A stretch of 32,000 bases of DNA. Source: a virus. Shown here piece after piece: positions 1,412 to 25,509 of the stretch. Each line of letters opens with the position of its first letter. The first letter of the stretch is position 1. Where the stretch lies: positions 11,317-43,316 of the IMG/VR virus record IMGVR_UViG_3300029839_000129; one strand, written 5' to 3'. The notes under the pieces were generated by a model. The model was given only the letters and a program-made list of their open reading frames with translations, did not search any database and was not told the origin of the DNA. The translations under genes and the position numbers were made by a program.

Positions 1412-2530
1412 TTACGATATAACTTTATCGTTAACGTAAACCGTGCCATACATTTTGATGGTGCTGCCGGTTATCTGCACGGTGTTCGGCGCGTACATCC
1501 ACAGGCTGTTGCCGCTCGATAGGCTCATGCTGCCCGCGCTCTCCAGCTTGAGCGCGAACGGCACGCCCAGCGCGCTCTTGGTGTACAGGAACATTCTGTA
1601 CTGTGAATCCCCACTGTCACCCATGTCATCAAGGCGCAGGCCACCTGCAAGATAACTCTCGCTTGTGTTGGAGAGGTAGTAACACTTTATCTCGCCGCCA
1701 ATGCCACGTGACGTAAGGATCGTTTCAAACGTCGAGCCTGTAATCGACGAGCCGTCTATCGTTACGCTGGATATGTCTATGGCGCTGATAATGCCCGTGG
1801 TGATGTTCCCGCCGTTGATGGTCGTGCGTCCGCTCGTGCTCAGATCGGCGAAGGTCACCATGCCAGTGATCTGCACGTTGGTGCTCGAGAGCTGCACGCC
1901 GTTGCTCGTGAGTGTAAGCGTGCTGCTCTGCGTGCCGTTGCTGGCCGTTATCCTCAGCCCGCTCACGGTCTGCTGGAGGCTCGTGTAGTTCCCCTCAAGG
2001 TCGGAAATATCCGAGGTCAGTGAAGTTGCCGTCTGCTGGAGGGTCGAGATATTCCCCTCTGCACTCGTGACCCTGCTCGTCAGGCTGTCCGAAGTCTGGA
2101 ACAGCGTCGTGATGTTCCCCTCAGCGTCTTCCACGCGGGCGGACAGGCTTTCTGATATTTGATATATGGCGGAGATGTTCCCCTCCGCGTCCTCGAGCTG
2201 GGTAGAGAGGCTCGCCGCCGTCTGCTGGAGCGTGGAGATGTTGCCCTCCGCATCCTGGAGCTGAGTACTTATAATGCCGAGGTTGACGTCTATTTCCGCC
2301 AGGCTGCCGTCCACACCGTCCAGCCTGAGGATCAGAGGCTGATTGATGATCCCCGCGATCTCGATAAACGAGTTGGCGTTGATGTTGTCGAGCCCGAGGT
2401 TGGAGAGCGAGTATGTGAGCTGCTCCTTGAGCATGTAGAGGTAATTCATTATCGTGAACACCTGCTGCTCCGTGCTCTTCCCGCTCAGGTTGGGGAACAT
2501 TATGTCGGTATTCAGTATGCTGCTCGGCAT
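1412..2530 (-). CDS. Fibre-like structural protein (372 aa) with five tandem 21-aa repeats
   Basis: ATG at 2530 with GGAGGTGG RBS. Repeat unit (L/V)xDAEGNISTLQQTAxSLxxx. The C-terminal half is Ser/Thr/Gly-rich and looks beta-rich (TINGGNITTG, SVTIDGSSITG). Confidence 0.7.
   Translation of the reverse strand: MPSSILNTDIMFPNLSGKSTEQQVFTIMNYLYMLKEQLTYSLSNLGLDNINANSFIEIAGIINQPLILRLDGVDGSLAEIDVNLGIISTQLQDAEGNISTLQQTAASLSTQLEDAEGNISAIYQISESLSARVEDAEGNITTLFQTSDSLTSRVTSAEGNISTLQQTATSLTSDISDLEGNYTSLQQTVSGLRITASNGTQSSTLTLTSNGVQLSSTNVQITGMVTFADLSTSGRTTINGGNITTGIISAIDISSVTIDGSSITGSTFETILTSRGIGGEIKCYYLSNTSESYLAGGLRLDDMGDSGDSQYRMFLYTKSALGVPFALKLESAGSMSLSSGNSLWMYAPNTVQITGSTIKMYGTVYVNDKVIS
1949..2260 (-). 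repeat. Five tandem 63-bp (21-aa) coding repeats inside the fibre-like gene
   Basis: Residues ~91-194: LQDAEGNISTLQQTAASLSTQ / LEDAEGNISAIYQISESLSAR / VEDAEGNITTLFQTSDSLTSR / VTSAEGNISTLQQTATSLTSD / ISDLEGNYTSLQQTVSGLRIT. Confidence 0.75.
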
Positions 2531-2859: not shown

Positions 2860-3117
2860 TCAATCCTCCTTAGGCTTTTCGTACATCATGGCGAGATTAC
2901 TGTCGCTCAGGCCGGCGGTGGTCGGGTCGGTGACAACGCCGAGTATCGCCAGCACCGCAAACAGCGCGTTCACCACGGCCAGCAGCTTGTCGCCCATCTC
3001 CGACAGGTCAAGGCTGAACCCGAAAACATACGCCACCGCCTGAATCAGCAGCAGCAGCGCAGGGATGAGCGCAAGCCAAAAGTTTTTGTTTTTAATGCGA
3101 ACTTTCCAGTTAATCAC
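2860..3117 (-). CDS. Holin (85 aa), phi-LC3 / Phage_holin_1-like
   Basis: MINWKVRIKNKNFW start, two hydrophobic helices and the GVVTDPTTAGLSDS motif typical of this holin family. GTG start 7 nt after AGGAGG. Sits beside the endolysin. Confidence 0.8.
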   Translation of the reverse strand: MINWKVRIKNKNFWLALIPALLLLIQAVAYVFGFSLDLSEMGDKLLAVVNALFAVLAILGVVTDPTTAGLSDSNLAMMYEKPKED

Positions 3118-3146: not shown

Positions 3147-4604
3147 TCATATTCCGAGTGCACGATAGAGCATCGTCCACACCTGCTGCCGCGTGCAGGC
3201 TGCGTCCGGGTTCTCTCCGTCGGATATACCCTGCGCCATTACCCACTCTCGCGCAAGCTCGGTCTCGGTCTTGGCGGGGGTTTCGGTATCAGGCTCGGGG
3301 TTCGGCTCAGGCTCGGGTGCTTTCGCAGGCTGATTAAGCCCGTTCTTTTCGATGATATCCGGGTAGTCGTAGTAGGCGGCGTTCATGTCCACACGCCTAG
3401 AAATGCCGTTCACACTGCCGGAGTTAGTATACTGCCAGATACCGCCCGCCTGTGCGGGCTTGCTGCTGGGATCCGGCTTGGACGGCCACTGGGCGAGCCA
3501 GATGTCGTAGTTTTTGGGGATATAGCTGTCGAAGTATTTGCTCAGATAGCTCGGGTTGGTGTATATCATCGCATAATACTTCGCCTGTTCGATGCGTCCG
3601 CAAAACGCATATGCAAGGGCGGTGACGTGTGCCTTGTCCGGCTCGACGCCGTTTTTCTTGGCGTATTTAACGCTGTCGCTCTCATAATCGAACGCGATAG
3701 GGTAGTCGAGCTTGTACGGCTCAACTGCCGCCAGCGCATACTCAGCCTCGCGTATCGCCATGGCCTCTGTATAGGCATAGGAGAACCAGTAGACGCCGCA
3801 GGGGATGCCGAGGCGGTTGCACTCGCTGATGTTGCGCTTGAACTGTGGGTCGATATTGTTCTGTCCGTAGCCCGCGCGGATCATGGCAAACTCAATGCCC
3901 GCCGCGTGGACGGCCTCCCAGTCGATTGTCTTCTGCCACTCAGAGACATCTATTCCCGTTTTGTATGTAGTCGTAGTGATCTCCTCCTTGTCGTCTTCCG
4001 TGTCGTCTCCGCCCGTGCCGCCGTCTTCCGCGAACCACAGCAGTAGGAAGCTGTACAGGTCGCGCCCGTCGCCGCGCTGATAGGTTGTGCCATCATAGCA
4101 CTGAGAGCTGCCCGAGCCATCCAGCACCATGCCGTCCACGATGCCGAGCGCCTGCATCCTGTCCACTATGCCGTCCAACGTGTAGTTGGAGGTCGTAACC
4201 TCGACCGTCCATTTCCCCGTCTTGTCCACGCCGAACCATGTTCGGAGCGTGGAGCGCCGGACGCTTGCGGTCTGCCGGTCGATAACATCGTCGCGGCACT
4301 TGCCGCCCACCAGCACGGGCAGGGTGGAGAGATAGTTGTCATTGCCCATCGTGGATACCATCATAGGCAGTGCGCCCGCGTTCCAACCGAAGCCCCAGTC
4401 CATCCAGTCCTCGGTGGAGAGCACCTTGCCGTCCACCTTGTAATTGCCGCAGGGCTTCGGGCCGGGGTCCCACCAGTGCCCGTTGGTGACGATGAGCTTG
4501 CCGGGGTGCTTGCCCTTGTTGGCGTTGTATACAGTTACAACGCTGGATTTGCCGGTATAATCGTTATACAGCTCCGCTCGGAGCAGTGTGCCTGTGTGTA
4601 TCAT
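3147..4604 (-). CDS. Three-part endolysin: N-terminal phosphodiester-glycosidase (NAGPA/DUF2233)-like domain, GH25 muramidase, and a C-terminal single SLH-like motif
   Basis: N-terminal part ends in VLDGSGSSQ. An acidic/Thr linker follows. The GH25 signature is GIDVSEWQKTIDWEAVHAAGIEFAMIRAGYG...GVYWFSYA. A Pro/Glu linker follows, then AREWVMAQGISDGENPDAACTRQQVWTMLYRA. ATG at 4604 with GAGGTG RBS. Confidence 0.85.
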   Translation of the reverse strand: MIHTGTLLRAELYNDYTGKSSVVTVYNANKGKHPGKLIVTNGHWWDPGPKPCGNYKVDGKVLSTEDWMDWGFGWNAGALPMMVSTMGNDNYLSTLPVLVGGKCRDDVIDRQTASVRRSTLRTWFGVDKTGKWTVEVTTSNYTLDGIVDRMQALGIVDGMVLDGSGSSQCYDGTTYQRGDGRDLYSFLLLWFAEDGGTGGDDTEDDKEEITTTTYKTGIDVSEWQKTIDWEAVHAAGIEFAMIRAGYGQNNIDPQFKRNISECNRLGIPCGVYWFSYAYTEAMAIREAEYALAAVEPYKLDYPIAFDYESDSVKYAKKNGVEPDKAHVTALAYAFCGRIEQAKYYAMIYTNPSYLSKYFDSYIPKNYDIWLAQWPSKPDPSSKPAQAGGIWQYTNSGSVNGISRRVDMNAAYYDYPDIIEKNGLNQPAKAPEPEPNPEPDTETPAKTETELAREWVMAQGISDGENPDAACTRQQVWTMLYRALGI

Positions 4605-4616
4605 GGTGTCACCTCG

Positions 4617-5207
4617 CTATCTTTTAATTGTAAAATCCCCCGACACATAAAAGAAATCCTCGTCGCCAGCAATGAAGTTATAACTGTCTACTCGTGTTAT
4701 ACCGCCAGATATAGTTAAATTTTCGCCAGGAGAAGCATAAACTAAAGAATATTTTGGTATTTGGTTATCTGTTATTGTACTCGCTCCCATACCTACTGTG
4801 TTAAATGAGTAACCTCTAGTGGTTCCTCGAGTAGGATACAATGCACTAAAACTAGAAGAAGCAGCTATAAACGTACCGGTTACAACTTCGCTACTATGCG
4901 TTCCAGTCACCCCAAATATACTCACACCCTCGGCTATGTTCTCCGCCTTGAGGTTCGCATCACCCTTGACCGTCACCGCGCCCGTGGTATATCTCCCGGA
5001 CGCTACGGCGGTCTGCGTCGTCGTGCCGGGCGTCACCGTCTTCTCCCCTTGCGTCGGAAGCTGCTGCGTGGCGCTCTTGCTGCCGCCGGGCACATAGCCC
5101 GCTTCCTGCTCAGTCGTGGCCGTGATAAGCCCTTCGGCGCTCACGTCGATTATCGGTGTGGCGGCTTCGACCCGCGGGCTGTTGCCGTCATTCGGGTTTG
5201 CTATCAT
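4617..5207 (-). CDS. Tail fibre / receptor-binding protein, paralogue 2 (196 aa)
   Basis: Shares with 6348..7025 the MI(A/N)NP start, a conserved core (GLITAT...SATQQL.TQG.KTVTP...TQTAVASGRYTTGAV.V.GDANLK.ENI..G.SIFGV.G) and the C-terminal tip YV(S/T)xDF(T/S)I. The part distal to the IFGV motif diverges and is AT-rich. Confidence 0.65.
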   Translation of the reverse strand: MIANPNDGNSPRVEAATPIIDVSAEGLITATTEQEAGYVPGGSKSATQQLPTQGEKTVTPGTTTQTAVASGRYTTGAVTVKGDANLKAENIAEGVSIFGVTGTHSSEVVTGTFIAASSSFSALYPTRGTTRGYSFNTVGMGASTITDNQIPKYSLVYASPGENLTISGGITRVDSYNFIAGDEDFFYVSGDFTIKR

Positions 5208-6270
5208 AGCTGCACCTCATTATCTCCAGATTTTTGCGGAGCCGCTCATTCCCGGGCTCCAGCTCCACGGCCTTTTCCGCCGCCGTAACCGCATCGTAAT
5301 AATGCCCGAGCTGCCAGCTGGCTATTGCCATAATGTCATACGGCTCCGCGCCCCAGGCCTCCGGCTCGGTAATGTAGTTGTTGTCGCGCGTGGTGATGTG
5401 CAGCGTCCGCATGGCCCAGTAACGGCACAGAGGCCAGTCCGAGCGCCGGTAGTAGAGCATCGCCAGCGCATATGGCGCCTCGCGCTGTGTCAGCGCCTCC
5501 TCGGCTGCCCGTTCCAGCCAATGTGCCGCGCTCTGCCAATCGCCCAGCGCCTCGCAGCAGCGGGCTATGTAGCGCATGCTCGCCGCCCGCTCCGCGGCCC
5601 AGGTCGCCGTGGGCATCGCCAGGTGCCGCATGAGCGTCGCTATCGCGTCACCCCAGCGTCCGTGGAACATGTACTCCCGCCCGAGGTAGTGCATGTTGCG
5701 GTCGTCGCCCGGGTCCTCGGCGGCGGAAAGCTCAAGCAATGGGAGATACTGCCCGCGGCTCTTGCTGCTGTCCGGCCAGTGCTCCACGCGCAGCGCGGGG
5801 ACGGTGATGCAGCTCTCCGGCCGCTCCGTCGCCAGCACCTCGTGTACGGGGTGCGTCCACCGATAGCCGTGCCGGGCGTGGATCTTGTCCGCGAAGAACA
5901 CTACGCCGTCTCCCCCGTCGCGCGTGTGGCTCCAAACGTAGGTATACCGCGCCCTCGTAGTGCCGGGCGTCCAGGCCACCTCCAGCGCCTCGCGCCAGCC
6001 GGGGCAAAGCACCTCGTCGAGGTCGAGACAGATGCAGATGTCCGCGTCCAAGGGCAGCAGGGCGAGCGAGGCATTACGCGCCGCATCAAAGCGCCATGGC
6101 TCGATAGTCTGCTCGTACACGTTGGCCCCCAGCGCCCGCAGCCGCTCCGGTGTCCCGTCCGTGCTGCCAGTGTCGAGCACATACACGCCGTCGGCCTCCG
6201 CGCATGAGCCCATGAACCGCTCGGCGAATTGTGCCTCGTTTTTGCAAATGGCGTAGATGATGATGTTCAT
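5188..6270 (-). CDS. Family-2 (GT-A) glycosyltransferase with a C-terminal TPR-like helical domain (360 aa)
   Basis: N-terminus IIIYAICKNEAQF...VLDTGSTDGT...RFDAARNASL...CLDLDEV (DxD) is a typical GT2 signature. The C-terminal half has TPR-like repeats (YLGREYMFHGRWGDAIATL, YIARCCEALGDWQSAAHWLERA, ASWQLGHYYDAVTAAEKAVELEP). ATG at 6270 with GAGGT RBS. Confidence 0.85.
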   Translation of the reverse strand: MNIIIYAICKNEAQFAERFMGSCAEADGVYVLDTGSTDGTPERLRALGANVYEQTIEPWRFDAARNASLALLPLDADICICLDLDEVLCPGWREALEVAWTPGTTRARYTYVWSHTRDGGDGVVFFADKIHARHGYRWTHPVHEVLATERPESCITVPALRVEHWPDSSKSRGQYLPLLELSAAEDPGDDRNMHYLGREYMFHGRWGDAIATLMRHLAMPTATWAAERAASMRYIARCCEALGDWQSAAHWLERAAEEALTQREAPYALAMLYYRRSDWPLCRYWAMRTLHITTRDNNYITEPEAWGAEPYDIMAIASWQLGHYYDAVTAAEKAVELEPGNERLRKNLEIMRCSYDSKPE

Positions 6271-6306
6271 GTAGTTACCTCAAACGTGGTCGTTACAGTT
6301 TTCGCG

Positions 6307-6341
6307 CGGAGTAGTGTGCCTGTATAGAGAATAGTGTCGCC
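6307..6341 (-). pseudogene. Fossil 5' end of an endolysin gene; the start codon has decayed to ATT
   Basis: 6307-6341 aligns with 4579-4616, the endolysin start region (shared cggag.agtgtgcctgt ... gtgtc.cc). The remnant reads I-L-Y-T-G-T-L-L-R-A; the endolysin reads M-I-H-T-G-T-L-L-R-A. Confidence 0.6.
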
Positions 6342-6347
6342 TTTTAA

Positions 6348-7025
6348 TTAATACGAAATTGAAAAATCATCCGTTACATATAGCAAAGAAGCTACTATTG
6401 TGTAGTTCATTGTGAATTCAAAGAGATACTCTATGCCGCCTGTTAGTCTAAGGTCTGTTTCGCCAAAATCACTTATTACTACAAATGAGTTTTTTAGAAT
6501 ATCCCATGTAGTATTTACTTCTTGGGAATCCCAAAGTCGCTTGTAACCGCTCGGAGTACAAATGAAATGCGCCCGATTAGAGTATCGGAATGAAAACGTC
6601 CCTTTTACAGTCTCTAGTACATTTGCTGAACCGGATACACCAAATATACTCTTGCCATTTACGATGTTTTCAGGTTTCAAATTAGCGTCTCCTGCGACTT
6701 GCACAGCACCAGTTGTATATCTGCCAGAAGCAACAGCGGTTTGCGTCGAGGTACTGGGGGTTACAGTCTTTGCGCCCTGCGTCGTGAGCTGTTGCGTGGC
6801 GCTCATTGTGCCGTCTGCGACGATGCCGCCGACCTGCGCAGCTGTGGCGGTGATAAGCCCTCCGGAGGATACAGAGATTGACGGCGTAGCCTGTTCCACA
6901 TCGGGCACCGTGCCGGTGACTACGCTGCCATCCGGGGCGATGAGGCTTTTGCCGCTTCTGAGGTCGATTGCCGTACCTGGGTTCTCAAGCGTCGGCAGCT
7001 GCTTGTGGACTGGGTTGTTTATCAT
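6348..7025 (-). CDS. Tail fibre / receptor-binding protein, paralogue 1 (225 aa)
   Basis: Homologous to 4617..5207 (see that entry). I prefer ATG 7025 (MINNPVHKQ...) to the ORF-track start 7058, because it matches the MIANP start of the paralogue. The distal two thirds are AT-rich. Confidence 0.65.
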   Translation of the reverse strand: MINNPVHKQLPTLENPGTAIDLRSGKSLIAPDGSVVTGTVPDVEQATPSISVSSGGLITATAAQVGGIVADGTMSATQQLTTQGAKTVTPSTSTQTAVASGRYTTGAVQVAGDANLKPENIVNGKSIFGVSGSANVLETVKGTFSFRYSNRAHFICTPSGYKRLWDSQEVNTTWDILKNSFVVISDFGETDLRLTGGIEYLFEFTMNYTIVASLLYVTDDFSISY

Positions 7026-7050
7026 GCCGCACCGCCTTCCGGCTCGCGGT

Positions 7051-7356
7051 TTATGCAAAGGCTATATAAGTCCTGGTAAAGGAGCCTGGCACGCTGCTGG
7101 CACCAATTGTTAAAGTTCTCTCGTCTGTGAAATATACTTCCGGTGATAGCCCTGATGTGCTCATTCCGGGCAGCAGAAGGAATGTCAGTTCGCAGCTGGG
7201 TGAGGCGCCTGAAATTGCTGGTTTGTTGTAGTCGCCTACCAAAACTACTGATGCCGGCTGAGCAAATGTGATTTTTGTCCCCGCTTCCCCCTTTATCTGC
7301 CCACTGGCAACAACTCCGCTCCTTGCAGAGCCTGGGTTCAGTATCACGTCCGGCAC
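7051..7356 (-). CDS. Hypothetical structural-module protein (~98-101 aa)
   Basis: ORF lying between the collagen-like gene and fibre paralogue 1. GTG 7356 abuts the AAGGAGGTG RBS, so GTG 7347 (6-nt spacing) is the more likely start. Confidence 0.5.
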   Translation of the reverse strand: MPDVILNPGSARSGVVASGQIKGEAGTKITFAQPASVVLVGDYNKPAISGASPSCELTFLLLPGMSTSGLSPEVYFTDERTLTIGASSVPGSFTRTYIAFA

Positions 7357-7393
7357 CTCCTTTGTGCAAGGTGCCAGTAAAGGGAGCTAGACG

Positions 7394-7402
7394 CCCCCCC
7401 CC
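7394..7402. repeat. Homopolymer C9 (G9 on the coding strand) in the 86-bp intergenic gap
   Basis: acgCCCCCCCCCgctggg, read directly from the sequence. Confidence 0.9.
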
Positions 7403-7442
7403 GCTGGGATTATGTGGTATTTATGCATTGTGTACAACCTCC

Positions 7443-9341
7443 TTATGCCAGGCTCTGTATCACGATGTATACGGTCAGATCTGCGCCGGGGATGGTCGTG
7501 CAGCTGAAGACCAGCTGTCCAGCCGCCTGCCCGGTGCAGAGCACGCCCGCCTCATAGTAGGCGGATTGCGACGTCAGCGCCGGCACCGGCGTGATGAGCT
7601 GTGTCGTCTCGTCCGCGAGCACGCCGGTGACGCTCACCGTCTGGGCATTGCTGCTCCAAGCGGACGCTTTGAGCGTAACGGAGACGCTGTGAGGCTGCCC
7701 GCTCGCCCCTGCCGGTCCAGTGGGACCGGTGGGGCCAGTAGCCCCCGCAGGCCCCGCCACGGTAGAGGCCGCGCCCTGCGGTCCAGTGGGCCCGGTCGGA
7801 CCCGTGGGGCCGGTTGGCCCGGTCGCGCCGTCCGCTCCGGCGGGACCCTGTGCTCCGTCTGTGCCCTTTGGGCCTTGCGGGCCAGTCGGTCCCGTTGGGC
7901 CTTGCGTCCCTGCCTCCCCGTCAGCTCCGCTGGGTCCGGTGGGGCCTGTGGGTCCGGTAGGTCCGGTTGCGCCTGTGGGGCCCTGTGCCCCAGTAGCTCC
8001 ATCAGCTCCGGGAGGACCTGTGGGGCCGGTCGGTCCGGTCGCGCCGTCTTCGCCCTGAAGGCCTATCAGGCCTTGCGGCCCGGTCGGGCCAGTGGGTCCC
8101 GTTTCCCCCTGCAGGCCTTGCGTCCCCTGTGAGCCGGTCGGGCCGGTCGGGCCAGTCACGCCGTCTGCGCCTGTGGGGCCTTGCGGCCCCTGCGGGCCTG
8201 TCGGTCCGGTCGGGCCAGTCGGGCCGATTTCGCCGGCGGGGCCTTGAGCTCCGTCCTTGCCGTTGGCGCCTGTGGGGCCTGTCGGGCCCGTGGGGCCGGG
8301 AACAGTAGAATCTGCGCCGGTCGGCCCGGTAGGGCCTGTCGGGCCCTGAGCGCCCTGCAGAGGGCCGTCATTGATCCACCCGGGGCTGCCGCTCACGGAG
8401 GTGTAGGTATATACGTCATAAGGCGCGCTCGTGCCGACATAGTAGTTATCGCCTATGTTTGGGCTGGGCACGCCCTGCTGGAGCGCCTCAAGGCTGTCAT
8501 ACTGGCCGAGGATATCGAGGCCGGTTCCCCGGTCGCCCTGCGGTCCTGTCGGTCCTGTGGGACCCGTTAGGCCAGTCTCGCCTTGGCTCCCCTGCGGTCC
8601 CTGTGCTCCTGTGGGTCCGGTCGGGCCGGTCGGGCCCGTCGGGCCTTCAGGGCCCGGCACATCTGAGACGGGCCCTGTCGGGCCTGTTGGGCCGGTTTCG
8701 CCCTGTAGCCCCTGCGCGCCCTGTGGGCCCGTGGGGCCGGGGACAGTTGACGCCTGTCCCTGGGGGCCGGTTGGTCCGGTCGGGCCTGTTGGGCCTTCCG
8801 GGCCCGGCACCTCTGAGGCGGGCCCGGTCGGGCCGGTCTCGCCGATGGGGCCGGTGGGGCCGATCGGGCCGGGTATAGTAGAGGCCTGCCCCTCGGGGCC
8901 CTGCGGGCCTATTGGCCCCTGCAATCCCTGCGCGCCGGTCGGGCCGGTCGGGCCCGTCGGCCCGATAGTGCCCTGCGGCCCCTGTGAGCCTGTCGGCCCG
9001 GTAGGGCCAACGGGGCCGGTGAGCATGCCGTAGTTGTGCCACTCAGGCGTCCCATCTACGATGAGCCAGGTATACAGCTCGTATGGCGGTTCGGTGCCGA
9101 TGTAATAGCTGTTGCCGATTTCAGGAGACGGCACAGCCTGCTGAAGCTCCTCGAGCGTATCGTACTGCCCGAGCACCTCAATGCCAGTGCCCGCGGGCCC
9201 CGTGGGGCCTATGAGGGAGGCCAGCCACTCCTCCGGTGTGCCCTGGAAACCGTGCGCTACTGCTACGCCGTAGGCGTCGATGTAATAGCCGTGCCAGGGG
9301 TTGGGCCAGGGGCACGGTGGATGGTAGGGGTGAAAGCTCAT
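7443..9341 (-). CDS. Collagen-like triple-helix-repeat fibre protein (632 aa), rich in GPT triplets
   Basis: Long G-X-Y runs dominated by [10 protein letters not shown]. There are two homologous ~59-aa globular inserts, and recurring breaks of the form (A/V/D)S(T/E/D)V(P/A)GP. Globular ~85-aa C-terminus. ATGA overlap with the upstream gene. Confidence 0.9.
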
Positions 9342-9718: not shown

Positions 9719-10726
9719 TCAGGACACCAGCTGAGTGCCGCCGCTCACGCCGCCCACGGCCGCGAAGCGCCAGTCGGCGAAGCCGCCCGTGAATCGGGCG
9801 TAGCCCTTCCACACGTTGGCGTCGTTGCTCGCCAGCTCGCTCCGTACTTCAAGGTTCACGCGGTTGAGCCACTCGGCGCCGCCGCGGGCTATGTTGTACC
9901 CGGAATCGAGCAGCACCCAGGCCGTCGTATCGCCGCCCAGCCACTCGTTGAGGTAGGGCCAGACGATCACGTTCCAGCGGCCGAAGAGGAAGTTGAATGC
10001 GTTGTTGGAGGTGTTCGGGTCCTTGTCCGCTCCAATGGCCGCGAATACCGCCTTTTTGAGCTTGTAGTTGTTGGGGATGAGGATGGTGTCGGGATGCACG
10101 TCGAGCACTTCGCCCGTGTCGCCCTTGAAGTCCTGCATGGCGCTCTCCATGGCCGCCAGCGCGTCCTCGGAAAACTCGTCCGCGAACTGGTTGGACTGCA
10201 GGAACTTCGCGTCCAGGATGCTCGGGTGGCTCTTGGAAAAGAGGCAAAGCTCGTCTGCGCCGGTCGTGGGGAAGGACTTCCCGCGGAAGGTCATCGCGGT
10301 GTTGCCAAGCATGGCGTTGGCGTAGAGCGCAGCGCCGAAGCGCTCGCGCGTGCGGTAGTAGCCGGCCGTAAACGCCTCGGGCTGCCGCCTGAGGTCCATG
10401 ACGGTAGCGTCGTCGATGATCTCGCGGGAGAGGCTGAAGCTGTCCTTCCACGTCATGTTGATAAGGACTTTCTTGTGGCCCTCCTGCATGTAGTCCACGG
10501 GGTACTCACCGTTTTCGCCCACGGGCTGGAAGCCCTGCATGGCAGTCATGGAGCTGATGGTCTCGCCGAAATGGCGGCTGTCGTTTATGTCGAAGAGGTG
10601 CTTGAGCATGCTCATCTGTTCAAACGCCTCGCCGCGCTTTTCGATGAACATGCGGATGGGGGCCTGGCATTTGCCGAATACGGAATCGTTAACGCCCGAG
10701 CCCTCGGTGAAGCTGATACCAGCCAT
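9719..10726 (-). CDS. Major capsid protein (335 aa)
   Basis: Size and position after the scaffold and decoration-like genes. The whole stretch carries a long antisense shadow ORF, which is typical of a strongly GC3-biased gene. Confidence 0.7.
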   Translation of the reverse strand: MAGISFTEGSGVNDSVFGKCQAPIRMFIEKRGEAFEQMSMLKHLFDINDSRHFGETISSMTAMQGFQPVGENGEYPVDYMQEGHKKVLINMTWKDSFSLSREIIDDATVMDLRRQPEAFTAGYYRTRERFGAALYANAMLGNTAMTFRGKSFPTTGADELCLFSKSHPSILDAKFLQSNQFADEFSEDALAAMESAMQDFKGDTGEVLDVHPDTILIPNNYKLKKAVFAAIGADKDPNTSNNAFNFLFGRWNVIVWPYLNEWLGGDTTAWVLLDSGYNIARGGAEWLNRVNLEVRSELASNDANVWKGYARFTGGFADWRFAAVGGVSGGTQLVS

Positions 10727-10753: not shown

Positions 10754-11158
10754 TCAGGCCGGGAACCTGACGTAAACGGTATCGCCCACGGCGGTGCCGT
10801 CCATAGAAACTACCTCGGCCACGCCGCTCGTGGTAGTGGCCGTTACCTGCATGCCGTCGGCGCTGAGCGTCACAAGGTCGCCCGCGTTCACCGCGCTTGC
10901 AGCGGCGCTCCAGCTCGTGGCGAAGAGCGTCCCCTCGAGCACGCGGAAAACGGGGATGATGGTGCCCGCCGTCAGCGCGCTCTCGGCGGCCGTGGCGCAT
11001 ATGTACTGCGGCCGCGTGGTCGCGCCGCAGGCGGCCAGGTTGCCGTCGGTCATGCCGAGCGCCATGCCTATCTGAGGCGTGATCGCGCCCGCGGGCAGAT
11101 ACTCCAGCCCGGGGATGATGCCGCCGTTGTTCTGGGATATGAGAAAAGCCATTTTCAT
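10754..11158 (-). CDS. Small head protein (134 aa), decoration-like (DUF2190-like)
   Basis: Gly/Ala/Thr-rich 134-aa protein between the scaffold and capsid genes. The family call is tentative. Confidence 0.45.
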   Translation of the reverse strand: MKMAFLISQNNGGIIPGLEYLPAGAITPQIGMALGMTDGNLAACGATTRPQYICATAAESALTAGTIIPVFRVLEGTLFATSWSAAASAVNAGDLVTLSADGMQVTATTTSGVAEVVSMDGTAVGDTVYVRFPA

Positions 11159-12078
11159 TACACTCCTTTCGAGATGTTTTTGAGATATCTTGCGTAGTCC
11201 GCCCTGATCTCGGCCTCAGTCGCCTTGGGGTTTATGGCGCGGTAATATTCCAGCACCTCAGCAGATATAGCGGGAACGTCGCCGCCCTTCCCCCGGGATT
11301 TTGTGGCCTCCAGATGGGCCTTGCTCTGGGCCGCATTTATGGCGGCCTGTTTCGTCGCCGCAGCCGCCCGCTCCGAGAGCCGCTCCATGTTGGCCAGCCT
11401 GTAGGCCTCCACGAGGCTGAGGCGGTTCTGCTTCACGAATCGGTAGAACTCCGCGTAGTTCGGCATCTTCGCGAGGTCCTCGACCGTGTTGATCGCAGGG
11501 TCGAGCTCGTGTATCTGCCTCAGCTGCTCGTTCATCGCCGCGGCCGCGGCCTGCCGTTTCGCCTCCCTCGCCTCTTCGAGCTGGGCCTTGATCTCAGGCT
11601 GCTCAGCCGCGAGTTTGGCGAACTCCTCCTCGGTCATGCCGGCCTTTTTCAGCAGCTTGGTCCGCCTGTCCTCGTCCAGTTTGGCGCGATAGGCGTCGTA
11701 GTCGGCCTTGTTCTTGATGGGCTCCTTGGTGTAGGGGTTCGTGAGACCCAGCGCCTCGATGCTCTCGTCCAGCTGCTTCGCAGCGCGGGCCCGTATCTCG
11801 CGCGCTATCTGCTCGCGGGTCTGTGGATCTATCCCCGCGCCGGCGTTTCCCGCGCCTTTTTCCTCGGGCGTCTGTCCGCCCGGCTCTTCGCCTCCGGGCT
11901 CTTCGCCGCCGGGCGGCGCCGTCTCCGGGCCGTCTCCCGCCGTCGGCTGCTGTTCGCTCGGGGTGTTGGCCGCGCTGGCGGCGTCTTCGGGCTCACGTTC
12001 GCCCTGAGGCCCTTCCGGCCCGGGGTCTCCGGTCGGCTCCCCGCTTGTGTCTACGCCGAATATTTTGTCGTAGTCCAT
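11158..12078 (-). CDS. Scaffolding protein (306 aa)
   Basis: Acidic, Pro/Gly/Glu-rich, low-complexity N-terminus followed by a long charged helical region (KLDEDRRTKLLKKAGMTEEEFAKLAAEQPEIKAQLEEAREAKRQ). Lies between the portal and capsid genes. Confidence 0.65.
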   Translation of the reverse strand: MDYDKIFGVDTSGEPTGDPGPEGPQGEREPEDAASAANTPSEQQPTAGDGPETAPPGGEEPGGEEPGGQTPEEKGAGNAGAGIDPQTREQIAREIRARAAKQLDESIEALGLTNPYTKEPIKNKADYDAYRAKLDEDRRTKLLKKAGMTEEEFAKLAAEQPEIKAQLEEAREAKRQAAAAAMNEQLRQIHELDPAINTVEDLAKMPNYAEFYRFVKQNRLSLVEAYRLANMERLSERAAAATKQAAINAAQSKAHLEATKSRGKGGDVPAISAEVLEYYRAINPKATEAEIRADYARYLKNISKGV

Positions 12079-12341: not shown

Positions 12342-14471
12342 TCACATAGCGCCACCGCCCGTCTGTGCGTTGCCGAGCGCAGCCGCCTCCACCTGGCCGG
12401 CGAGTTCCGCCGCCTGCTGGGCGGCCGCCTGGCGCGCCTGCATCTGTATCTGAACGGCCTGCAGCTGTTCCTGCCGGCGCTGCTCCTGCTCAAGATAGCC
12501 GAGCGTTTCGCCGGCCCCCGGATAGTGCAGGAGATTCATCTTCCGCCAGAAGAGTATCAGTGTGCTCAGGCTTTGCGGGTTGCCGAAGGCCCCGGTCTGC
12601 AGGTTCATCCGCGTCTCCTGCCACATCGCCTCCCGGTTTGAGGCCAGCGGCGCGGAGGTATCGCAGGTGAAGAGGAAGGCATCGTTCCAGTACCACTCCC
12701 CGCTCGCGTCCTGCTGGAGGAAATCGAAGCGGTCGAAGGTCTTGTACTCGGCATTGCCCCGCTCGTCCAGCGTTCGCACAGCGCGAGGCTCGTCCGCATA
12801 GGCCAGCTTGAACTTGAACATGAGCTCGAACAGCGCAGCATACGCCGCGTCGCGCATCACCCGTTTGGACTCAAGCCGCCCCGCAGTCTGCGCCGCGGCG
12901 AACTCCTTGGCCGTGCCGCTCGTCGCCGTCGTGTCCCGCCGCCCCTGGAACGAATCGGTTATGCCAATGATCTGCCGGGCCTCCTCGTATATGTGGTCGA
13001 GGTATTCGCGGTCCTGGCTCACATCGCCCTCGAGGTTATATACGCCTATCATGTTCGCGTCCGCGGGGTTTGCCGGGCGGTAGACGCGCATATCGTTTTC
13101 ATCTATACCCACGCTCGCATCCGCGGGCAGCGTGACAAAGGAGCCGCTCGATATGAGCTTGTCGATGATCTTTTTTTCGAGCCTGTTGGTGGTGTTCTGC
13201 TGGTCCGTGATCTTGTCGATATCGCTGTCGCCGAGGAACTGCCCGTATACGCTCACGTTTTTCTGGAGCACAACAGGATAGCGGAGGGGCTTGTAATACG
13301 GCACACGGAACGGCACGAGCCGCACGGCCGGCACAGGAAGGCCCGTGATTTCGTCGATCTCGCCGGTGAGATAGACCTCCTCGTGTGCGCCCGGTATCCT
13401 GTGCCCGAGGCTCGTCGTGATGGGCGTCCAGATCTCCTCGAACTCCTCCTCGCTGTACTCCCAATCCGTCGAGCCGCAGTAGGGGCAGCGCCGCGCCTCG
13501 TGCCCGTCCGGCTCTTCCTCCGGCTCTTCCTCGCCCTCGGGCCAGAGCTCGCCGTCTATCCAGCGCATGGCCCCGCTCCAGCCCTCGTCGTCAGGCGGGA
13601 GCCCCGGGCGGCCCGAAACCCCCTCGGCCTGTTCCTTGACTGAGATCTCCTCGAAGTCTTCCTCTTCCTCGAGCGCGTGCTGCTTATCATCGCCGTCGTC
13701 GGCCGTGGGCTCGAGCTGGCCGCATACGGCGCAGCGCCGCAGCCGCCTCGCCTGGTAGTCCTCGAGGTCCTCGAGCTCAACATCCCCGCACCAGCTGTAC
13801 ATGCCAATCCCGCCGGCGTCGTTCCGGTAGTAGGCGATATACTGCGTCACCATGTCCTCAGCCGTGGAGCCGTCGCCGCCCTTGATATCCGGCTCAGCCT
13901 CGCCCTCGAAGGAAACGTCCTTCCCGTACCGCCGGTATATGTATTCCCGGGTCTGCGGCATCTTGAGGATGATGTAATCCATGTCCTCGATGCCGCTGTA
14001 CACGCCGTCCTGCGGCACCATCTGCCGCGGGTGGATGGGCACGACGTTCAGCTCGCCGATCGTGGTGTGCGTGCGCGCCGTGTTGTCCCACTCCACAAGA
14101 TAAGCCCCGCCGCCCTGGATGGGGACTATCCGCTCCATGAGGTCGTTGATCTCAGCAAAGGGCAGGCGGTCCATCTCATTGCGCAGCATGTCCTCGATTA
14201 TCTTGGCAAGCGGCTCGTCCTTCTCGTGGACCGCTGTGACCTTCGGCGAGGGGATGTTGCTGTCCACCTGGGCCTCTATGAGCTCGCTGCATATGTTCCG
14301 CACGTGCGGCGTTTTGGCGTTGCTCGGCCGGTATTTGTTCACGAGGGGGAAGATGTACCTGGAGCCCTGATACAGCCGCTCGCGCTCGTCCATGAGCGCA
14401 TACCAGTTTTCGTATTGCGAATCATTCCGGGCAAGTCTGTCCTGCCACAGGTGCAGCCTGTCTCTGTTCAT
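12342..14471 (-). CDS. Portal protein (709 aa) with an internal acidic CxxC...CxxC insertion
   Basis: Lies directly downstream of terL. ATG 14471 follows AAGGAGGAGAC. Large size and a Gln-rich C-terminal helix. The family was not verified. Confidence 0.75.
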   Translation of the reverse strand: MNRDRLHLWQDRLARNDSQYENWYALMDERERLYQGSRYIFPLVNKYRPSNAKTPHVRNICSELIEAQVDSNIPSPKVTAVHEKDEPLAKIIEDMLRNEMDRLPFAEINDLMERIVPIQGGGAYLVEWDNTARTHTTIGELNVVPIHPRQMVPQDGVYSGIEDMDYIILKMPQTREYIYRRYGKDVSFEGEAEPDIKGGDGSTAEDMVTQYIAYYRNDAGGIGMYSWCGDVELEDLEDYQARRLRRCAVCGQLEPTADDGDDKQHALEEEEDFEEISVKEQAEGVSGRPGLPPDDEGWSGAMRWIDGELWPEGEEEPEEEPDGHEARRCPYCGSTDWEYSEEEFEEIWTPITTSLGHRIPGAHEEVYLTGEIDEITGLPVPAVRLVPFRVPYYKPLRYPVVLQKNVSVYGQFLGDSDIDKITDQQNTTNRLEKKIIDKLISSGSFVTLPADASVGIDENDMRVYRPANPADANMIGVYNLEGDVSQDREYLDHIYEEARQIIGITDSFQGRRDTTATSGTAKEFAAAQTAGRLESKRVMRDAAYAALFELMFKFKLAYADEPRAVRTLDERGNAEYKTFDRFDFLQQDASGEWYWNDAFLFTCDTSAPLASNREAMWQETRMNLQTGAFGNPQSLSTLILFWRKMNLLHYPGAGETLGYLEQEQRRQEQLQAVQIQMQARQAAAQQAAELAGQVEAAALGNAQTGGGAM

Positions 14472-14480: not shown

Positions 14481-15872
14481 TTATCTGCCGGGCGGCCCCC
14501 AGCGCTGCTCCAGGAAGCGCTTCCCCGCGGGGGACGCGCGCCGGTAATCCTCCAGCATGTCCCTGGTCCATTGCATCCGGGCCGGCGCCTCCTGTATGTG
14601 TGCCGCCCGCGTCCAGTACACGCAGAAGCCGCGAACAGCGTCCGCCGCGTGAGTGAGCTCGTGCGGCTCCGTTGCCACATCGTTTACCCGCTTATCGTCA
14701 TAGCGCAGCTGAGGCAGCGTGCGGATGAGGTTGGTGCAGAGGGGGAATATGCGCAGCTTTGCCGCCCGCCGCCCCTGCTCGTCCTCAAACACATGGAGCC
14801 GCTCGTGCATCGCCATCCAGCCGTCCAGCCTGTCGTTGCTCGTTTTGGTGAGGGCAATGCCGTGCTCTGCGAATATGTCCGCCACGCTTCGCCCGGTCTC
14901 CTGCCGCGCGGCCCAGAGGTCCGGCGGCGCGAGATAGGCTGTGACCTTGTCGCCGCCCACCATGTCCAGCACGGCCTGGGCCGCCTCGCTCACTATGAGT
15001 CCCCTGGCGTTCTCGCCGAGGTCCCGGCCCTGATACACCTCGCGTATGACATAGGCCATGTCGTGTTCGTCCACCGCGATGAGGTAGGCCGCCAGCATGT
15101 CGAGGCCGTAGTCCATGGTCACATATCGCCGCCACCATGCCGGCGGCTCGAAGGGCTCCACCACATGCACATCCCGGTCCCACTCGCTGAAATACTGGCC
15201 CGCGAACACGTCCCAGGAGCCGTTGAGCCAGGCCTCGCGCAGCTCATAGGGCAGGGATTCGAGCATGCGGATATATTCGGGGTCCCGCTCCATGAGCATG
15301 GGATTGTCAGTTACTTTAGCCTGGATGAATTCGTAGTCGTCCGCCCGCTCGTCGCCACGGTACAGGCGGTCGATAAAAAGCCGCTTCACCCAGGCATGGC
15401 CCACGCCGCCCGGGTTGCAGGTGAGGTACATGCGCTTTGGGAATCCGCTCACGCCGCGCAAACATCCCTTGAAGGTTTGGAACTGGTACTCCGTAAGCTG
15501 TGTCGCCTCGTCGATGAAGATGATATCGTACTCCTGCCCCTGATACCTGAGCACATCCCGCTCCGCGGAGCAGTAGCCGAACCAGATGTTCGAGCCGTTT
15601 GGAAAAATGAATCTCTTCTGGTTGTCGTTCCAGCGTGCTATGCCGTTGAGCTCAGATTGCAGGGGCAGAATGTGGTTTTGCAGCAGTTCGGGGTAAGTGC
15701 GGCGAATTATCAGAATGTTGATACCGGCGTATCTCGAAGCCAGCAGCATTGCCTTCATGCGTACGGACCAGGTCTTGCCGCCGCCGCGCGCCCCGCCGTA
15801 GCCTATAAAGCGCCGTCGAGCTTTAAAGAACAGCTTTTGCCGCTCGTTGAGCCGCAGGACTTTAGTCTGCAT
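14481..15872 (-). CDS. terL: Terminase large subunit (463 aa)
   Basis: Walker A motif GYGGARGGGKTWS, then IIFIDEA (Walker B-like), then a C-terminal nuclease-like region. ATG 15872 follows GAGGAGG. The ORF-track start at 15911 is an upstream extension that overlaps terS. Confidence 0.9.
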   Translation of the reverse strand: MQTKVLRLNERQKLFFKARRRFIGYGGARGGGKTWSVRMKAMLLASRYAGINILIIRRTYPELLQNHILPLQSELNGIARWNDNQKRFIFPNGSNIWFGYCSAERDVLRYQGQEYDIIFIDEATQLTEYQFQTFKGCLRGVSGFPKRMYLTCNPGGVGHAWVKRLFIDRLYRGDERADDYEFIQAKVTDNPMLMERDPEYIRMLESLPYELREAWLNGSWDVFAGQYFSEWDRDVHVVEPFEPPAWWRRYVTMDYGLDMLAAYLIAVDEHDMAYVIREVYQGRDLGENARGLIVSEAAQAVLDMVGGDKVTAYLAPPDLWAARQETGRSVADIFAEHGIALTKTSNDRLDGWMAMHERLHVFEDEQGRRAAKLRIFPLCTNLIRTLPQLRYDDKRVNDVATEPHELTHAADAVRGFCVYWTRAAHIQEAPARMQWTRDMLEDYRRASPAGKRFLEQRWGPPGR

Positions 15873-16368
15873 AGCCCGCCGCCTCCTCGCTCGTGGCCTC
15901 GCGGAACACATAGTTCACGGTGTTGTCGTCAACTATCGCGGCCTCCACCCTGTTCCGCCAGCGCTCAGGCTCGCGGTTCGTGAGCCAGAAGATCTGCGCC
16001 TTGACGTCGGCTTTGATATAAACCTCTTCCTCGGCCATCACGATTTTTTCGCGGTCGATGCGCCGGCCGCGCGCGTCGTAGGTTGTGGTTTTTATCTTCA
16101 TCGGCTTTTTGAGTACCCGAACACCTCCGAGCGCCGTCTCAAGCAGGCTCCGTTCGACGCTTTCATTGACCGCGCGCGCATCCGCGCCCGTGCGTGCGCG
16201 CGTCACCGCCTCCGACATCTCCGGGTGCTTTTTGAGCCACTCGTAGAAGGTCGAGGAGCTGATGCCCATCTCCTTCGCCATCTCGGCGTCAGTCAATCGC
16301 GGCGCCATCTCGGCGAGCCGCTCAAGCCCCTGTTCTGTCAGCCATTCTGCATATTTGGCCCGCGCCAC
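15862..16368 (-). CDS. terS: Terminase small subunit
   Basis: N-terminal HTH-like LTDAEMAKEMGISSSTFYEWLKKHPE. Overlaps the terL start by 11 nt. GTG 16377 abuts the RBS, so GTG 16368 (6 nt after GGGAGGTG) is preferred. Confidence 0.75.
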   Translation of the reverse strand: MARAKYAEWLTEQGLERLAEMAPRLTDAEMAKEMGISSSTFYEWLKKHPEMSEAVTRARTGADARAVNESVERSLLETALGGVRVLKKPMKIKTTTYDARGRRIDREKIVMAEEEVYIKADVKAQIFWLTNREPERWRNRVEAAIVDDNTVNYVFREATSEEAAGYAD

Positions 16369-16764: not shown

Positions 16765-17550
16765 CTAACTGCGCATCGGTGCGAAGGGCAGCGCATAGCG
16801 GATATACTGCCCCGCCCTTTTGCCCGAGTAGGCCGTGCGGTACAGCAGCTCGCAGCCCTTTGGCACGCGCAGCTCCGCCCCGCTCCATACGACGCGGCAC
16901 TTCGGCTGAGGCCTCACAAGGTTGCGGGAGGGCTTGTACTTCTTCTCGTCGGGCAGGCGGCGAACCTGGTTCAGCAGATACTCCGCCAACGGCGTGTAAT
17001 CCTTTTGCGCGCTGAGCGCTTTGGCGTAGGCGCCCCCGTGCGGCCAGGCTTCCAGGCAGGCCTGCCACGCGGCCCGGTTGGCTATGATGTGGTGATGTAT
17101 GCGGACTGCCTCGCCCGTCTCCCCGTCCATATCGGAGGTCACGGCTATGTATTTGAGCTCCGCTCCCGGAGGCAGGCGGCGCTTCACCCGGCGGATGTAG
17201 TTGTCCAGCTCGCGGTTAGCCTCCTTGCGGAGATAGTCCTCGAGTATTCCCGGCTCCTGCCCGGCGGCCCGGTCTGCCTCCTGCCTGGCTTCCGCCCTGC
17301 GAAGGAGCTCGGAGTATTTCGTCGGCCCATAGTCCAGCCCGAGGAACAGATCCCCGGCTGAGAAGTTCGCGTGTATCTCCCGGTTAAGCCTGCGCACCGC
17401 GTCGTTCTCGTTCTGCCGCTGCTTCCGCTCCGAACTGCGGCCGAGCTTCCGCCCCCTGGCCGGAGGCTCGCCGGGGACCCAGTATTTCGTTTTCTCCCCG
17501 AGACCCCCGCACTCATATGTGCGGATCTCCCAGTACCCGGTCGAGCCCAT
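16765..17550 (-). CDS. 261-aa basic protein with HUH-endonuclease-like motifs; candidate rolling-circle Rep
   Basis: Ordered motifs: DLFLGLDY (Rep motif-1-like), AVRIHHHIIAN (His cluster followed by hydrophobics), DYTPLAEYLLNQ (Tyr-containing). No other replication gene is recognisable in the early region. Confidence 0.35.
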   Translation of the reverse strand: MGSTGYWEIRTYECGGLGEKTKYWVPGEPPARGRKLGRSSERKQRQNENDAVRRLNREIHANFSAGDLFLGLDYGPTKYSELLRRAEARQEADRAAGQEPGILEDYLRKEANRELDNYIRRVKRRLPPGAELKYIAVTSDMDGETGEAVRIHHHIIANRAAWQACLEAWPHGGAYAKALSAQKDYTPLAEYLLNQVRRLPDEKKYKPSRNLVRPQPKCRVVWSGAELRVPKGCELLYRTAYSGKRAGQYIRYALPFAPMRS

Positions 17551-24380: not shown

Positions 24381-24467
24381 TTATCGACAAACTGGGCAAG
24401 CCTTGCTTAAATTTGTTCCATCCCGCCCGCGCTCATCCAGCGCGGGCTTTTTATTACCGCCGCTCAC
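24381..24467 (-). pseudogene. 28-codon ORF sharing its first 15 codons and RBS with the 63-aa gene at 25269; likely a truncated relic
   Basis: GTG 24467 follows AGGAGGTGAGGAC. Product MSGGNKKPALDERGRDGTNLSKACPVCR. The first 45 nt lie inside repeat A. Confidence 0.35.
24425..24452 (+). terminator. Rho-independent terminator, copy 1 (inside repeat A)
   Basis: GCCCGCGCT-CATCC-AGCGCGGGC followed by TTTTT. Confidence 0.7.
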
Positions 24468-24481
24468 GTCCTCACCTCCTC

Positions 24482-24510
24482 TTGTCCGCCTCCGCGCCCG
24501 GTGGTAAAAT
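24482..24510 (+). promoter_or_regulatory. Extended -10 promoter, copy 1 (inside repeat B)
   Basis: TTGTCC, 17-nt spacer ending in TGg, TAAAAT. GGAGGTGA RBS at 24521-24528 and ATG at 24533. Confidence 0.55.
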
Positions 24511-24532
24511 CATCCGGAAGGGAGGTGACGAT

Positions 24533-24748
24533 ATGGCATCTATTCGCCAGTACGATAAACCTTGGACTTGCGCCAAATCCGGACATGAAGAAAAGTTCGC
24601 CGTATACCTGTTGGCAGCGGATGACGGCACAATTCTTGATGTCAAAGAGAATGGCTGCGAGAACATGGACGGAAGTGACAAATGCAACTCATGTCGCGCT
24701 CATGTTCTCCAGCAGCTCTATGAGCTCCACCTCGGTCATCGGCTCTGA
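24533..24748 (+). CDS. Small 4-Cys protein (71 aa) on the opposite strand to the early operon
   Basis: ATG 24533 lies 4 nt after GGGAGGTGA. Product MASIRQYDKPWTCAKSGHEEKF...GCENMDGSDKCNSCRAH. The ORF-track start at 24413 would read through the terminator and promoter. Confidence 0.55.
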   Translation: MASIRQYDKPWTCAKSGHEEKFAVYLLAADDGTILDVKENGCENMDGSDKCNSCRAHVLQQLYELHLGHRL

Positions 24749-25494: not shown

Positions 25495-25509
25495 GCCCTC
25501 GCCTCCCCT

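Follow-up and report, generated by a model that had tools for sequence, protein, structure and literature searches.

We examined a 32-kb stretch of the IMG/VR record IMGVR_UViG_3300029839_000129 (hereafter the window, meaning the whole stretch analyzed) that contains a locus with two genes for small fiber-like proteins, copy 1 in slot 1 and copy 2 in slot 2, separated by a glycosyltransferase (GT) gene, with a remnant of an endolysin gene start, here called the stub, between copy 1 and the GT gene. All relevant genes are on the minus strand, in the order terminase, P22-type portal, capsid, a 120-amino acid (aa) gene, collagen-like gene, 98-aa gene, slot 1, GT, slot 2, endolysin, and holin. The features of the locus itself are as follows (GC3, GC content at third codon positions; RBS, ribosome-binding site; TPR, tetratricopeptide repeat):

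7051..7347, minus strand: 98-aa gene, the left flank of slot 1 (from the open reading frame (ORF) list; a 98-99 aa gene is called here in relatives)
6348..7025, minus strand: slot-1 fiber-like gene, copy 1, 225 aa, N-terminal type T1
6627-7025, minus strand: N-terminal extension and core of copy 1, ending in SIFGVSG (residues 1-133)
6351-6626, minus strand: exchangeable tip domain of copy 1 (residues 134-225)
6348..6750, minus strand: low-GC tract of copy 1 (GC about 0.37, GC3 about 0.3)
6285..6345, minus strand: endolysin 5' stub, with RBS, former start, 17 former codons, and a 1-nt deletion
5188..6270, minus strand: GT gene between the slots, 360 aa, GT2 N-terminal domain and TPR repeats
4617..5207, minus strand: slot-2 fiber-like gene, copy 2, 196 aa, N-terminal type T2
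4896-5207, minus strand: core of copy 2 (residues 1-104)
4620-4895, minus strand: low-GC tip domain of copy 2 (residues 105-196)
4561..4615, minus strand: RBS and first ~15 codons of the functional endolysin gene, direct-repeat partner of the stub and right flank of slot 2
3147..4604, minus strand: endolysin, NAGPA-like N-terminal domain (Pfam NAGPA, E=1.2e-7) and GH25 muramidase (Pfam GH25, E=1.9e-33)
4400..5060, minus strand: block exchanged recently (96-100% identity to contig L063)

The two fiber-like genes are paralogs, as the original prediction had it (BLASTP E=1e-34, 49% identity over 201 columns for 6348-7025 against 4617-5207), and alignment of the two copies at the DNA level reveals a common core and a common start context, GGTGCnGCnATGATAnnnAACCC. 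The T1 N-terminus consists of MINNP and a 30-residue extension, and the T2 N-terminus of MIANPNDGNSP; both are conserved across many phages (dozens of contigs), each always in its own slot, with only about 65-70% of the residues common to the T1 and T2 cores. In both, the conserved N-terminal part ends in NIxxGxSIFGVxG and is followed by a tip of ~90 residues. The last 20 nt of the GT gene overlap the start of copy 2.

The distal segments of both copies had been described as AT-rich against GC-rich surroundings, which is borne out by sliding-window GC as well as GC3. In 200-nt windows, GC amounts to 0.355-0.42 at 6301-6700 and 0.385-0.39 at 4601-4900, with about 0.6-0.7 in the flanks. GC3 is 0.32 in the tip of copy 1 (residues 134-225) and 0.24 in the tip of copy 2 (residues 105-196), compared to 0.59 and 0.75, respectively, in the N-terminal parts and 0.73-0.88 in most neighboring genes. 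Because GC3 falls in the tips, the break is compositional rather than an amino-acid effect. The low-GC tract of copy 2 begins at the IFGV motif, and that of copy 1 near codon 93 (about 6750), that is, about 35 codons ahead of IFGV, inside the core.

The sequence downstream of copy 1 aligns with the endolysin start region, as had been noticed originally, well above chance level: local alignment of the 77 nt that follow each fiber stop codon yields a score of 37, compared to a mean of 13.2 (sd 2.2, maximum 25) for 2000 shuffles, and an independent repeat search pairs 4575-4614 with 6303-6342 at 78% over 40 nt. The stub comprises the RBS AAAGGCG, an ATT at 6332-6330, and 17 former endolysin codons; the homology stops at 6286, and a TGA at 6282-6280 overlaps the RBS of the GT gene, GAGG (6281-6278). 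Relatives read ATG in place of this ATT, in agreement with the predicted loss of the start codon, and in many of them the stub is an intact mini-ORF (MLYTGTLLRAE...) with its stop on the GT RBS. In contigs L001-L007, the stub reads RBS-ATG-CTC-TAT-ACA-GGC-ACA-CTA-CTC-CGC-GCC-GAA... (MLYTGTLLRAENCNDHI*), and the entire interval between copy 1 and GT in L001-L006 is AAAGGCGACACT-ATG-CTC-TAT-ACA-GGC-ACA-CTA-CTC-CGC-GCC-GAA-AAC-TGT-AAC-GAC-CAC-ATT-TGA-GGTAACTAC-ATG.

The stubs of relatives and the endolysin 5' ends of related phages are identical at up to 57/61 nt, as far as codon 17; the endolysin contains a GH25 domain according to the Pfam search, and it is to the 5' ends of such genes that the stub matches. 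Judged by its sequence, the stub is an endolysin-derived RBS with the first 17 codons, intact in relatives and decayed in the window. The window and six other haplotypes carry the ATG to ATT change plus a 1-nt deletion, and L080 carries the deletion with the ATG kept; in the window lineage, the stub would have lost both its ATG and its frame and hence appears to be a fossil there. The window stub is closer to the endolysin alleles of other phages (48/59) than to the endolysin of its own genome (42/59), and in the stub of L007, the upstream part resembles the true endolysin leader and the downstream part resembles other stubs. The endolysins of L007, L032, and L034 retain the NAGPA-like N-terminal domain, with Amidase_3 in place of GH25; the lysin itself is modular, and only its 5' end is common to the stub.

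The segments between the IFGV motif and the C-terminal end of the two proteins had been considered unrelated, but structure prediction for both tips and profile comparison indicate otherwise. The AlphaFold2 model of the copy 1 tip has a predicted local distance difference test (pLDDT) score of 86-97, and the copy 2 tip, modeled alone, has a pLDDT of 85 and a predicted template modeling score (pTM) of 0.75; both are all-beta, with the same seven-strand order. Compared profile to profile, the two cassette types match with 83% probability and E=8.7e-6 over the last 48 columns. The two tips are very diverged versions of one domain.

The family to which these proteins belong is large, with 3308 protein clusters (defined at 90% identity) matching copy 1 and 3043 matching copy 2, and throughout, the N-terminus is conserved and the C-terminus is variable. 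Among 237 sampled homologs, there are 56 tip clusters (at least 50% identity), 5 of which combine with T1 as well as with T2 N-termini; in contig L063, the copy 2 tip is attached to yet another, longer N-terminus (T3, 265 aa). Thus, two traits of modular receptor-binding proteins (RBPs) are apparent: a conserved N-terminus with an exchangeable C-terminal domain, evident from the alignments and the three N-terminal types, and, from gene order, location in a late structural operon near tail and lysis genes. A conserved N-terminus joined to a swappable C-terminal domain, beside the lysis cassette in a late operon, is the usual signature of host recognition. Homologs are called 'tail protein' in the source records, these labels being automatic annotations.

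Several longer homologs (P0120, P0199, and P0114) contain a ~70-residue core module (VEQATPxISVSSGGLITA...TTGxVxV) two or three times, and the motif NIxxGxxIFGVxGT recurs as a linker in longer homologs. The T1 extension DLRSGKSLIAPDGSVVTGT resembles another copy of the core module, and the proteins of this family seem to be beads on a string. In L002 and L003 (11820-12570), the slot-2 fiber gene is frameshifted in a G-run coding for the GGGG linker after IFGVTGTHS, and a shift to the +1 frame makes the remainder of another tip cassette legible; candidate explanations are misassembly, a pseudogene, and phase variation at the homopolymer.

On the minus strand, a start context GGTGCnG(n)C-(A/G)TG-ATA-nnn-AAC-CC (M-I-x-N-P) is common to the 98-aa gene (7347-7330), copy 1 (7025-7008), and copy 2 (5207-5190). 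In the 98-aa gene (7051..7347), which is 91-100% conserved among relatives, the likely start, GTG-ATA-CTG-AAC-CCA (M-I-L-N-P), is the start context of both fiber genes; the endolysin gene also begins with ATG-ATA, and the slot-1 gene of L018 (112 aa, without the core) begins with GTG-ATA-CAC-AAT. Pfam and PHROG searches with the 98-aa protein produced no match, and neither its body nor the L018 protein shows homology to the tip domain. The common start context may be the left-hand boundary for exchange of whole genes.

Contigs gathered via the fiber proteins, the GT, and the stub pattern yielded 30 distinct haplotypes of the junction upstream of GT. The stub is present in 23 of these, 21 of a 17-codon type and 2 of a 10-codon type, and absent from the remaining 7; the 10-codon stub is joined to a different GT leader (L034/L035 and L038). 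Stubs follow T1 fibers with at least 4 different tips and also many different glycine-rich proteins ending in ...TYLG; in a few contigs, the stub is preceded by upstream genes that could not be read. On the 3' side of GT, there is a T2 fiber, a T3 fiber (L063), or the endolysin directly. Accordingly, the locus can have both slots filled or just one of them, be it slot 1 or slot 2, the stub may be present or absent, and these states combine freely.

Comparison with relatives had been proposed originally as a way to find versions with one fiber and no GT. One-fiber versions do exist, with either slot empty or holding something else, and fibers and stub both vary among relatives, rather than all relatives having two fibers and no endolysin remnant. 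Versions without GT did not turn up: the gene is present in every relative found, and in a search for a GT-less fiber-endolysin relative, each of the 11 IMG/VR contigs that share this endolysin 5' end carried it. The GT gene was not captured along the way, contrary to the original idea of a duplication that enclosed it. Contig L063 was considered as a GT-less candidate and rejected, its upstream partial ORF being the C-terminus of the GT.

Pairwise identity profiles place the crossovers. Relative to L007 and L032, the window shows 97-100% identity from 7400 to about 6690, 0.42-0.73 in the tip, and 0.87-0.92 from the stub on, so that the segment replaced extends from about 6690 to about 6345. 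Relative to L008, which has no copy 2, the window is identical from 7400 to the middle of the GT gene and divergent thereafter. The match to L063, in which both the fiber N-terminus (T3) and the GT are different or divergent, reaches 96-100% identity only over 4400-5060, with about 60-85% in the flanks; this block runs from the 3' end of the core through the copy 2 cassette and the intergenic region into the endolysin gene, of which it covers the first ~200 nt. These alignments show that tip cassettes are replaced by recombination; on the left, the crossover lies toward the 3' end of the core, and on the right, just past the stop codon, in the endolysin 5' end (slot 2) or in the stub (slot 1). 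They further show that a block consisting of a tip cassette and the endolysin 5' end has moved very recently between otherwise dissimilar phages. Given that the L063 match is limited to 4400-5060, the moving unit is the tip plus the endolysin 5' end, as the stub implies for slot 1. The original proposal that a fiber gene plus the endolysin 5' end was duplicated or recombined in holds to the extent that such a block travels, as in L063; a recent duplication in place is the part that does not stand.

We believe that these observations are most probably explained by a two-slot recombining locus of small, modular, putative receptor-binding fiber-like proteins, with the stub as a recombination scar. 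A fiber gene located beside an endolysin gene would have been linked, right flank included, to the 5' leader of GT by an illegitimate crossover, and, with two junction types, this joining would have occurred at least 2 times. The stub would then provide slot 1 with the same right-hand flank as slot 2, so that homologous recombination could bring genes adjoining endolysins into slot 1. With the true start of the endolysin gene, the stub would form a direct repeat around GT and copy 2, and a virion bearing both of the different tips would have two binding specificities. We are doubtful about a more far-reaching version, which we advance only tentatively, namely, that the stub is a portable docking sequence, that endolysin-adjoining genes drop into slot 1, that GT and slot 2 are gained and lost between the repeats, and that ATG-bearing stubs perhaps act as a coupling leader for GT. 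If the docking version is true, the inserted genes would be fiber-family or glycine-rich genes from related phages.

A simple tandem duplication in this genome, whereby the fiber gene and endolysin start were copied in place, with GT inserted or enclosed later, would account for direct-orientation paralogs with a common start context, each followed by endolysin 5' sequence. Nevertheless, such a duplication is very unlikely: the cores have only about 65-70% of their residues in common, copy 1 has an additional 30 N-terminal residues, each N-terminal type is conserved and keeps to its own slot, and the window stub is less similar to its own endolysin than to other alleles; furthermore, the same stub occurs behind unrelated glycine-rich genes, and GT is universal in the group. 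The comparisons already point to a split of T1 and T2 long before the present phages diverged, and this old slot-specific divergence argues against a recent in-place duplication. The stub could, instead of being a scar, be maintained as a short upstream ORF, with the strong endolysin RBS and start bringing ribosomes that stop at or beside the GT start and so coupling the translation of GT. Indeed, the frame of every ATG-bearing stub is open and stops no more than 12 nt from the GT ATG or overlapping with it; the 17-codon type terminates at the TGA of TGAGG, in the 10-codon type and in L080, a frameshifted form with ATG, the stop is part of an ATGA overlap, and in a variant shortened by 3 nt the frame is preserved (MLYTGTLLRDLNDDHA). 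However, the window lineage (7 haplotypes), with ATT for ATG, and the 7/30 haplotypes that lack the stub keep an intact GT, so that the coupling role is dispensable; besides, the frameshifted forms encode a wholly different peptide, and an early stop after the junction is not improbable by chance. We regard maintenance as an upstream ORF as unlikely in itself, and it would be compatible with the scar explanation, as a later co-option. With respect to the origin of the tips, the original prediction derived them from a lower-GC pool, and import from phages of low-GC hosts, as opposed to persistence of low GC within the group, is suggested by the drop of GC3 from 0.6-0.88 to 0.24-0.32 within a few codons and by the clear horizontal movement of the cassettes; as the low-GC tract of copy 1 reaches into the core, the donor would also have encoded the core. 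No low-GC donor was found, however, the lowest-GC family genes in the fetched loci (0.48) having GC3 of 0.41-0.71, and all cassettes in about 20 related high-GC phages are low-GC (GC3 0.24-0.49). The copy 1 cassette, at 82% amino-acid identity between lineages, still has GC3 of about 0.3, which looks like long residence or a common cassette pool rather than recent import, and the sole recent transfer caught was between two phages of ~59% GC. Import is a possibility worth keeping in mind, although we lean toward the opposite.

The two proteins could also be some other variable component of the virion or cell surface, such as a head decoration or a superinfection exclusion protein, with diversification driven by immunity or defense. 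This would agree with the lack of a family or fold match to any known RBP, with the absence from T1 and T2 of the long N-terminal segment of their T3 relatives, and with the position of the locus after the capsid and collagen-like genes, with more structural genes after the lysis cassette. We nonetheless consider such a role improbable because the combination of a conserved N-terminus and a swappable C-terminus near lysis genes is the one usually associated with host recognition, homologs are named as tail proteins, albeit by automatic annotation, and slot 1 can hold glycine-rich proteins instead. We take the latter to resemble the ends of tail fibers; the one that was searched had no PHROG match. 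Finally, the hypervariable C-terminal domain and the presence of a serine recombinase gene at 28317-29831 could bring to mind a diversity-generating retroelement (DGR) or an invertase-driven shufflon, a mechanism to which we give almost no credence. The 32-kb window contains no template/variable repeat pair, and the ORFs examined include no reverse transcriptase. The cassettes are not bordered by inverted repeats (a single, unrelated inverted repeat turned up, and the copies are in direct orientation), the recombinase is a 504-aa large serine integrase at the prophage end beside host genes, and the variation is between genomes, in a pattern of homologous replacement. A DGR target and invertible cassettes of the Mu Gin/P1 Cin type were both rejected on the strength of the repeat search.

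Several observations weigh against the two-slot reading of the locus or bear on particular parts of it. The fiber-like proteins have no family match in Pfam or NCBIfam, and their sole PHROG match is a family without an assigned function. Foldseek searches of PDB and BFVD with the full copy 1 model and the copy 2 tip gave best E values of about 0.03-0.2 with low template modeling (TM) scores, and a PDB profile search with the family alignment came back empty, so there is no fold kinship to a known receptor-binding head or knob among the structures searched. The N-terminal half of copy 1 is predicted with low confidence as a monomer. Receptor binding and a place in the virion are putative for both proteins, suggested by architecture and position. 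The product expected from a deletion between the direct repeats, with the slot-1 gene followed by endolysin and no GT, was found in no contig. The proposed role of the stub as a homology arm is based on breakpoint positions in a handful of pairwise comparisons, with a stub of only ~60 nt. Most of the data are metagenome assemblies, with the same junctions recurring in many independent assemblies and collections. Apart from these points, PHROG and NCBIfam searches with longer fiber relatives and one glycine-rich slot-1 protein gave no functional name, and the annotated phage genomes of INPHARED yielded only marginal matches, of a Dulem virus 35 'tail protein' to the core and of jumbo-phage GTs to the GT, with no informative gene context.

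The GT matches phrog_13126 (E=1e-110) and TPR_2 (34.9 bits vs a cut-off of 27), with Pfam Glycos_transf_2 just below the threshold (22.7 bits vs 23.3) and no NCBIfam name. Its nearest annotated relatives are 'beta-1,4-glycosyltransferases' of jumbo phages, and its N-terminus has a marginal match (E=0.0026 over 80 residues) to a PDB chain named GmaR, which we take to be the Listeria flagellin O-GlcNAc transferase, a GT2-TPR protein with the same domain layout. The fiber cores are Ser/Thr-rich, and a collagen-like protein is encoded just upstream. One possibility is that virion proteins are glycosylated, with the Ser/Thr-rich fiber cores or the collagen-like protein as conceivable substrates of this GT2-TPR enzyme.

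The locus works like established modular systems and, by sequence and fold, is outside all characterized families. The RBPs of lactococcal 936 and P335 phages and the VR2 region of Orf18 in the Streptococcus thermophilus phage DT1 are small, with a conserved N-terminus that fits the virion, a swappable head that determines host range, and a collagen-like gene nearby. Here, as in those phages, heads are swapped by recombination at conserved flanks, but the heads have no sequence or fold similarity, there are two slots parted by GT, and the right flank is the endolysin 5' end or the stub rather than intragenic sequence. Phages K1-5 and CBA120 and the staphylococcal phage K possess at least 2 receptor-binding proteins, which are large tailspikes or fibers with known folds and enzymatic domains. 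The present locus likewise encodes side by side two paralogs with different distal domains; these, in contrast, are of 196-225 aa, have no known fold, and either one is dispensable in relatives. At the mosaic junctions and 'boundary sequences' of lambdoid phages and mycobacteriophages, an illegitimate recombination event is succeeded by homologous crossovers within short, conserved flanks. In the history proposed here, a junction made once by illegitimate recombination would similarly serve afterward, as a short conserved sequence at a gene boundary, as a crossover site, with flanking modules combining freely, but the boundary differs in being an identifiable duplicated RBS with 10 or 17 codons of a named neighbor gene; as the boundary can be identified as an endolysin 5' end, the origin of the slot-1 gene is readable. 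For the GT, the nearest counterparts are GT2-TPR protein glycosyltransferases such as Listeria GmaR and prophage glycosyltransferases that modify cell-surface receptors, such as TarP and Gtr. The window GT resembles these in that it has an N-terminal GT-A type domain and TPR, no membrane segment noticed, and a position beside putative host-recognition genes; its match to GmaR is only the marginal one mentioned above.

Host-recognition modules common to distantly related phages have been described, for example, in Alteromonas phages (PMC10579305), as has the modularity of tailspikes (PMC10408124). The block of about 650 nt in the window and L063, found in dissimilar phages, is comparable, but it pairs a domain with the beginning of the following gene instead of comprising a complete fiber and chaperone module, and the hosts are uncultured gut Firmicutes.

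The remaining genes that place the locus in its phage context are as follows:

14481-15911, minus strand: large terminase
12342-14471, minus strand: P22-type portal
11158-12078, minus strand: possible scaffold gene, by position alone
9719-10726, minus strand: major capsid protein
between the major capsid and collagen-repeat genes, minus strand: 120-aa gene
7443-9341, minus strand: 632-aa collagen-repeat protein
2860-3117, minus strand: holin (Pfam Phage_holin_1, E=4.6e-29)
28317-29831: large serine recombinase (504-aa integrase), adjoining host genes at the prophage end
30606-32000: host oxidoreductase gene, which together with the serine recombinase marks one prophage end

A 100% identical copy 1 is present in a contig from the uncultured Clostridiales genome UMGS768, and remoter relatives are found in Faecousia and Oscillospiraceae genomes. 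The locus is carried by a temperate phage with a P22-type portal that is integrated in a human-gut Clostridiales/Oscillospiraceae genome. The fetched contigs come mostly from human-gut samples, with a few from animal guts. A scan of the region 4300-7500 for terminator-like sites found none.

As observed at 1412-2530 (minus strand) of the window and at the L001 and L007 loci, the lysis cassette is followed downstream by genes for a Gp58-like protein with 63-nt repeats, for proteins of 129 aa, 534 aa, and about 440 aa, and for a giant protein of 1934-3135 aa with LPD23 and DUF6782 domains; with structural genes also following the lysis cassette, the lysis genes are surrounded by the structural genes in this phage with a P22-type portal. 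Immediately ahead of the packaging genes, at 16765-17550 (minus strand), there is a gene for a rolling-circle-type replication initiator (phrog_3584, E=2.6e-43), an uncommon feature in a tailed prophage that has a terminase and a portal. The early/lysogeny region contains intergenic repeats of 33-60 nt with 98-100% identity, at 24421-24528, 25223-25296, 25507-25557, and 26132-26164. They contain a GC-rich hairpin with a T-run (CCCGCGCTCATCCAGCGCGGGCTTTTT) followed by CTCACCTCCT, and these repeats (24421-26164) resemble terminator plus RBS modules between small genes.

Exchangeable heads, dual RBPs, moving host-recognition modules, and mosaic junctions at gene boundaries are all already known; what is new here is the protein family with its tip fold, the two-slot arrangement around GT, and a boundary sequence with a readable origin. 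The locus documents, at nucleotide level, how a second slot for specificity comes into being and stays open to exchange; it offers a clean, datable example of phage mosaicism, with no new principle involved. The precise cassette boundaries, namely, the 3' end of the core on one side and the stub or endolysin 5' end on the other, could guide engineered tip swaps or metagenome-based host prediction. To our knowledge, the host range of gut phages that infect uncultured Firmicutes is hardly known, and the family described here is a good candidate for what determines host recognition in one abundant group of these phages.

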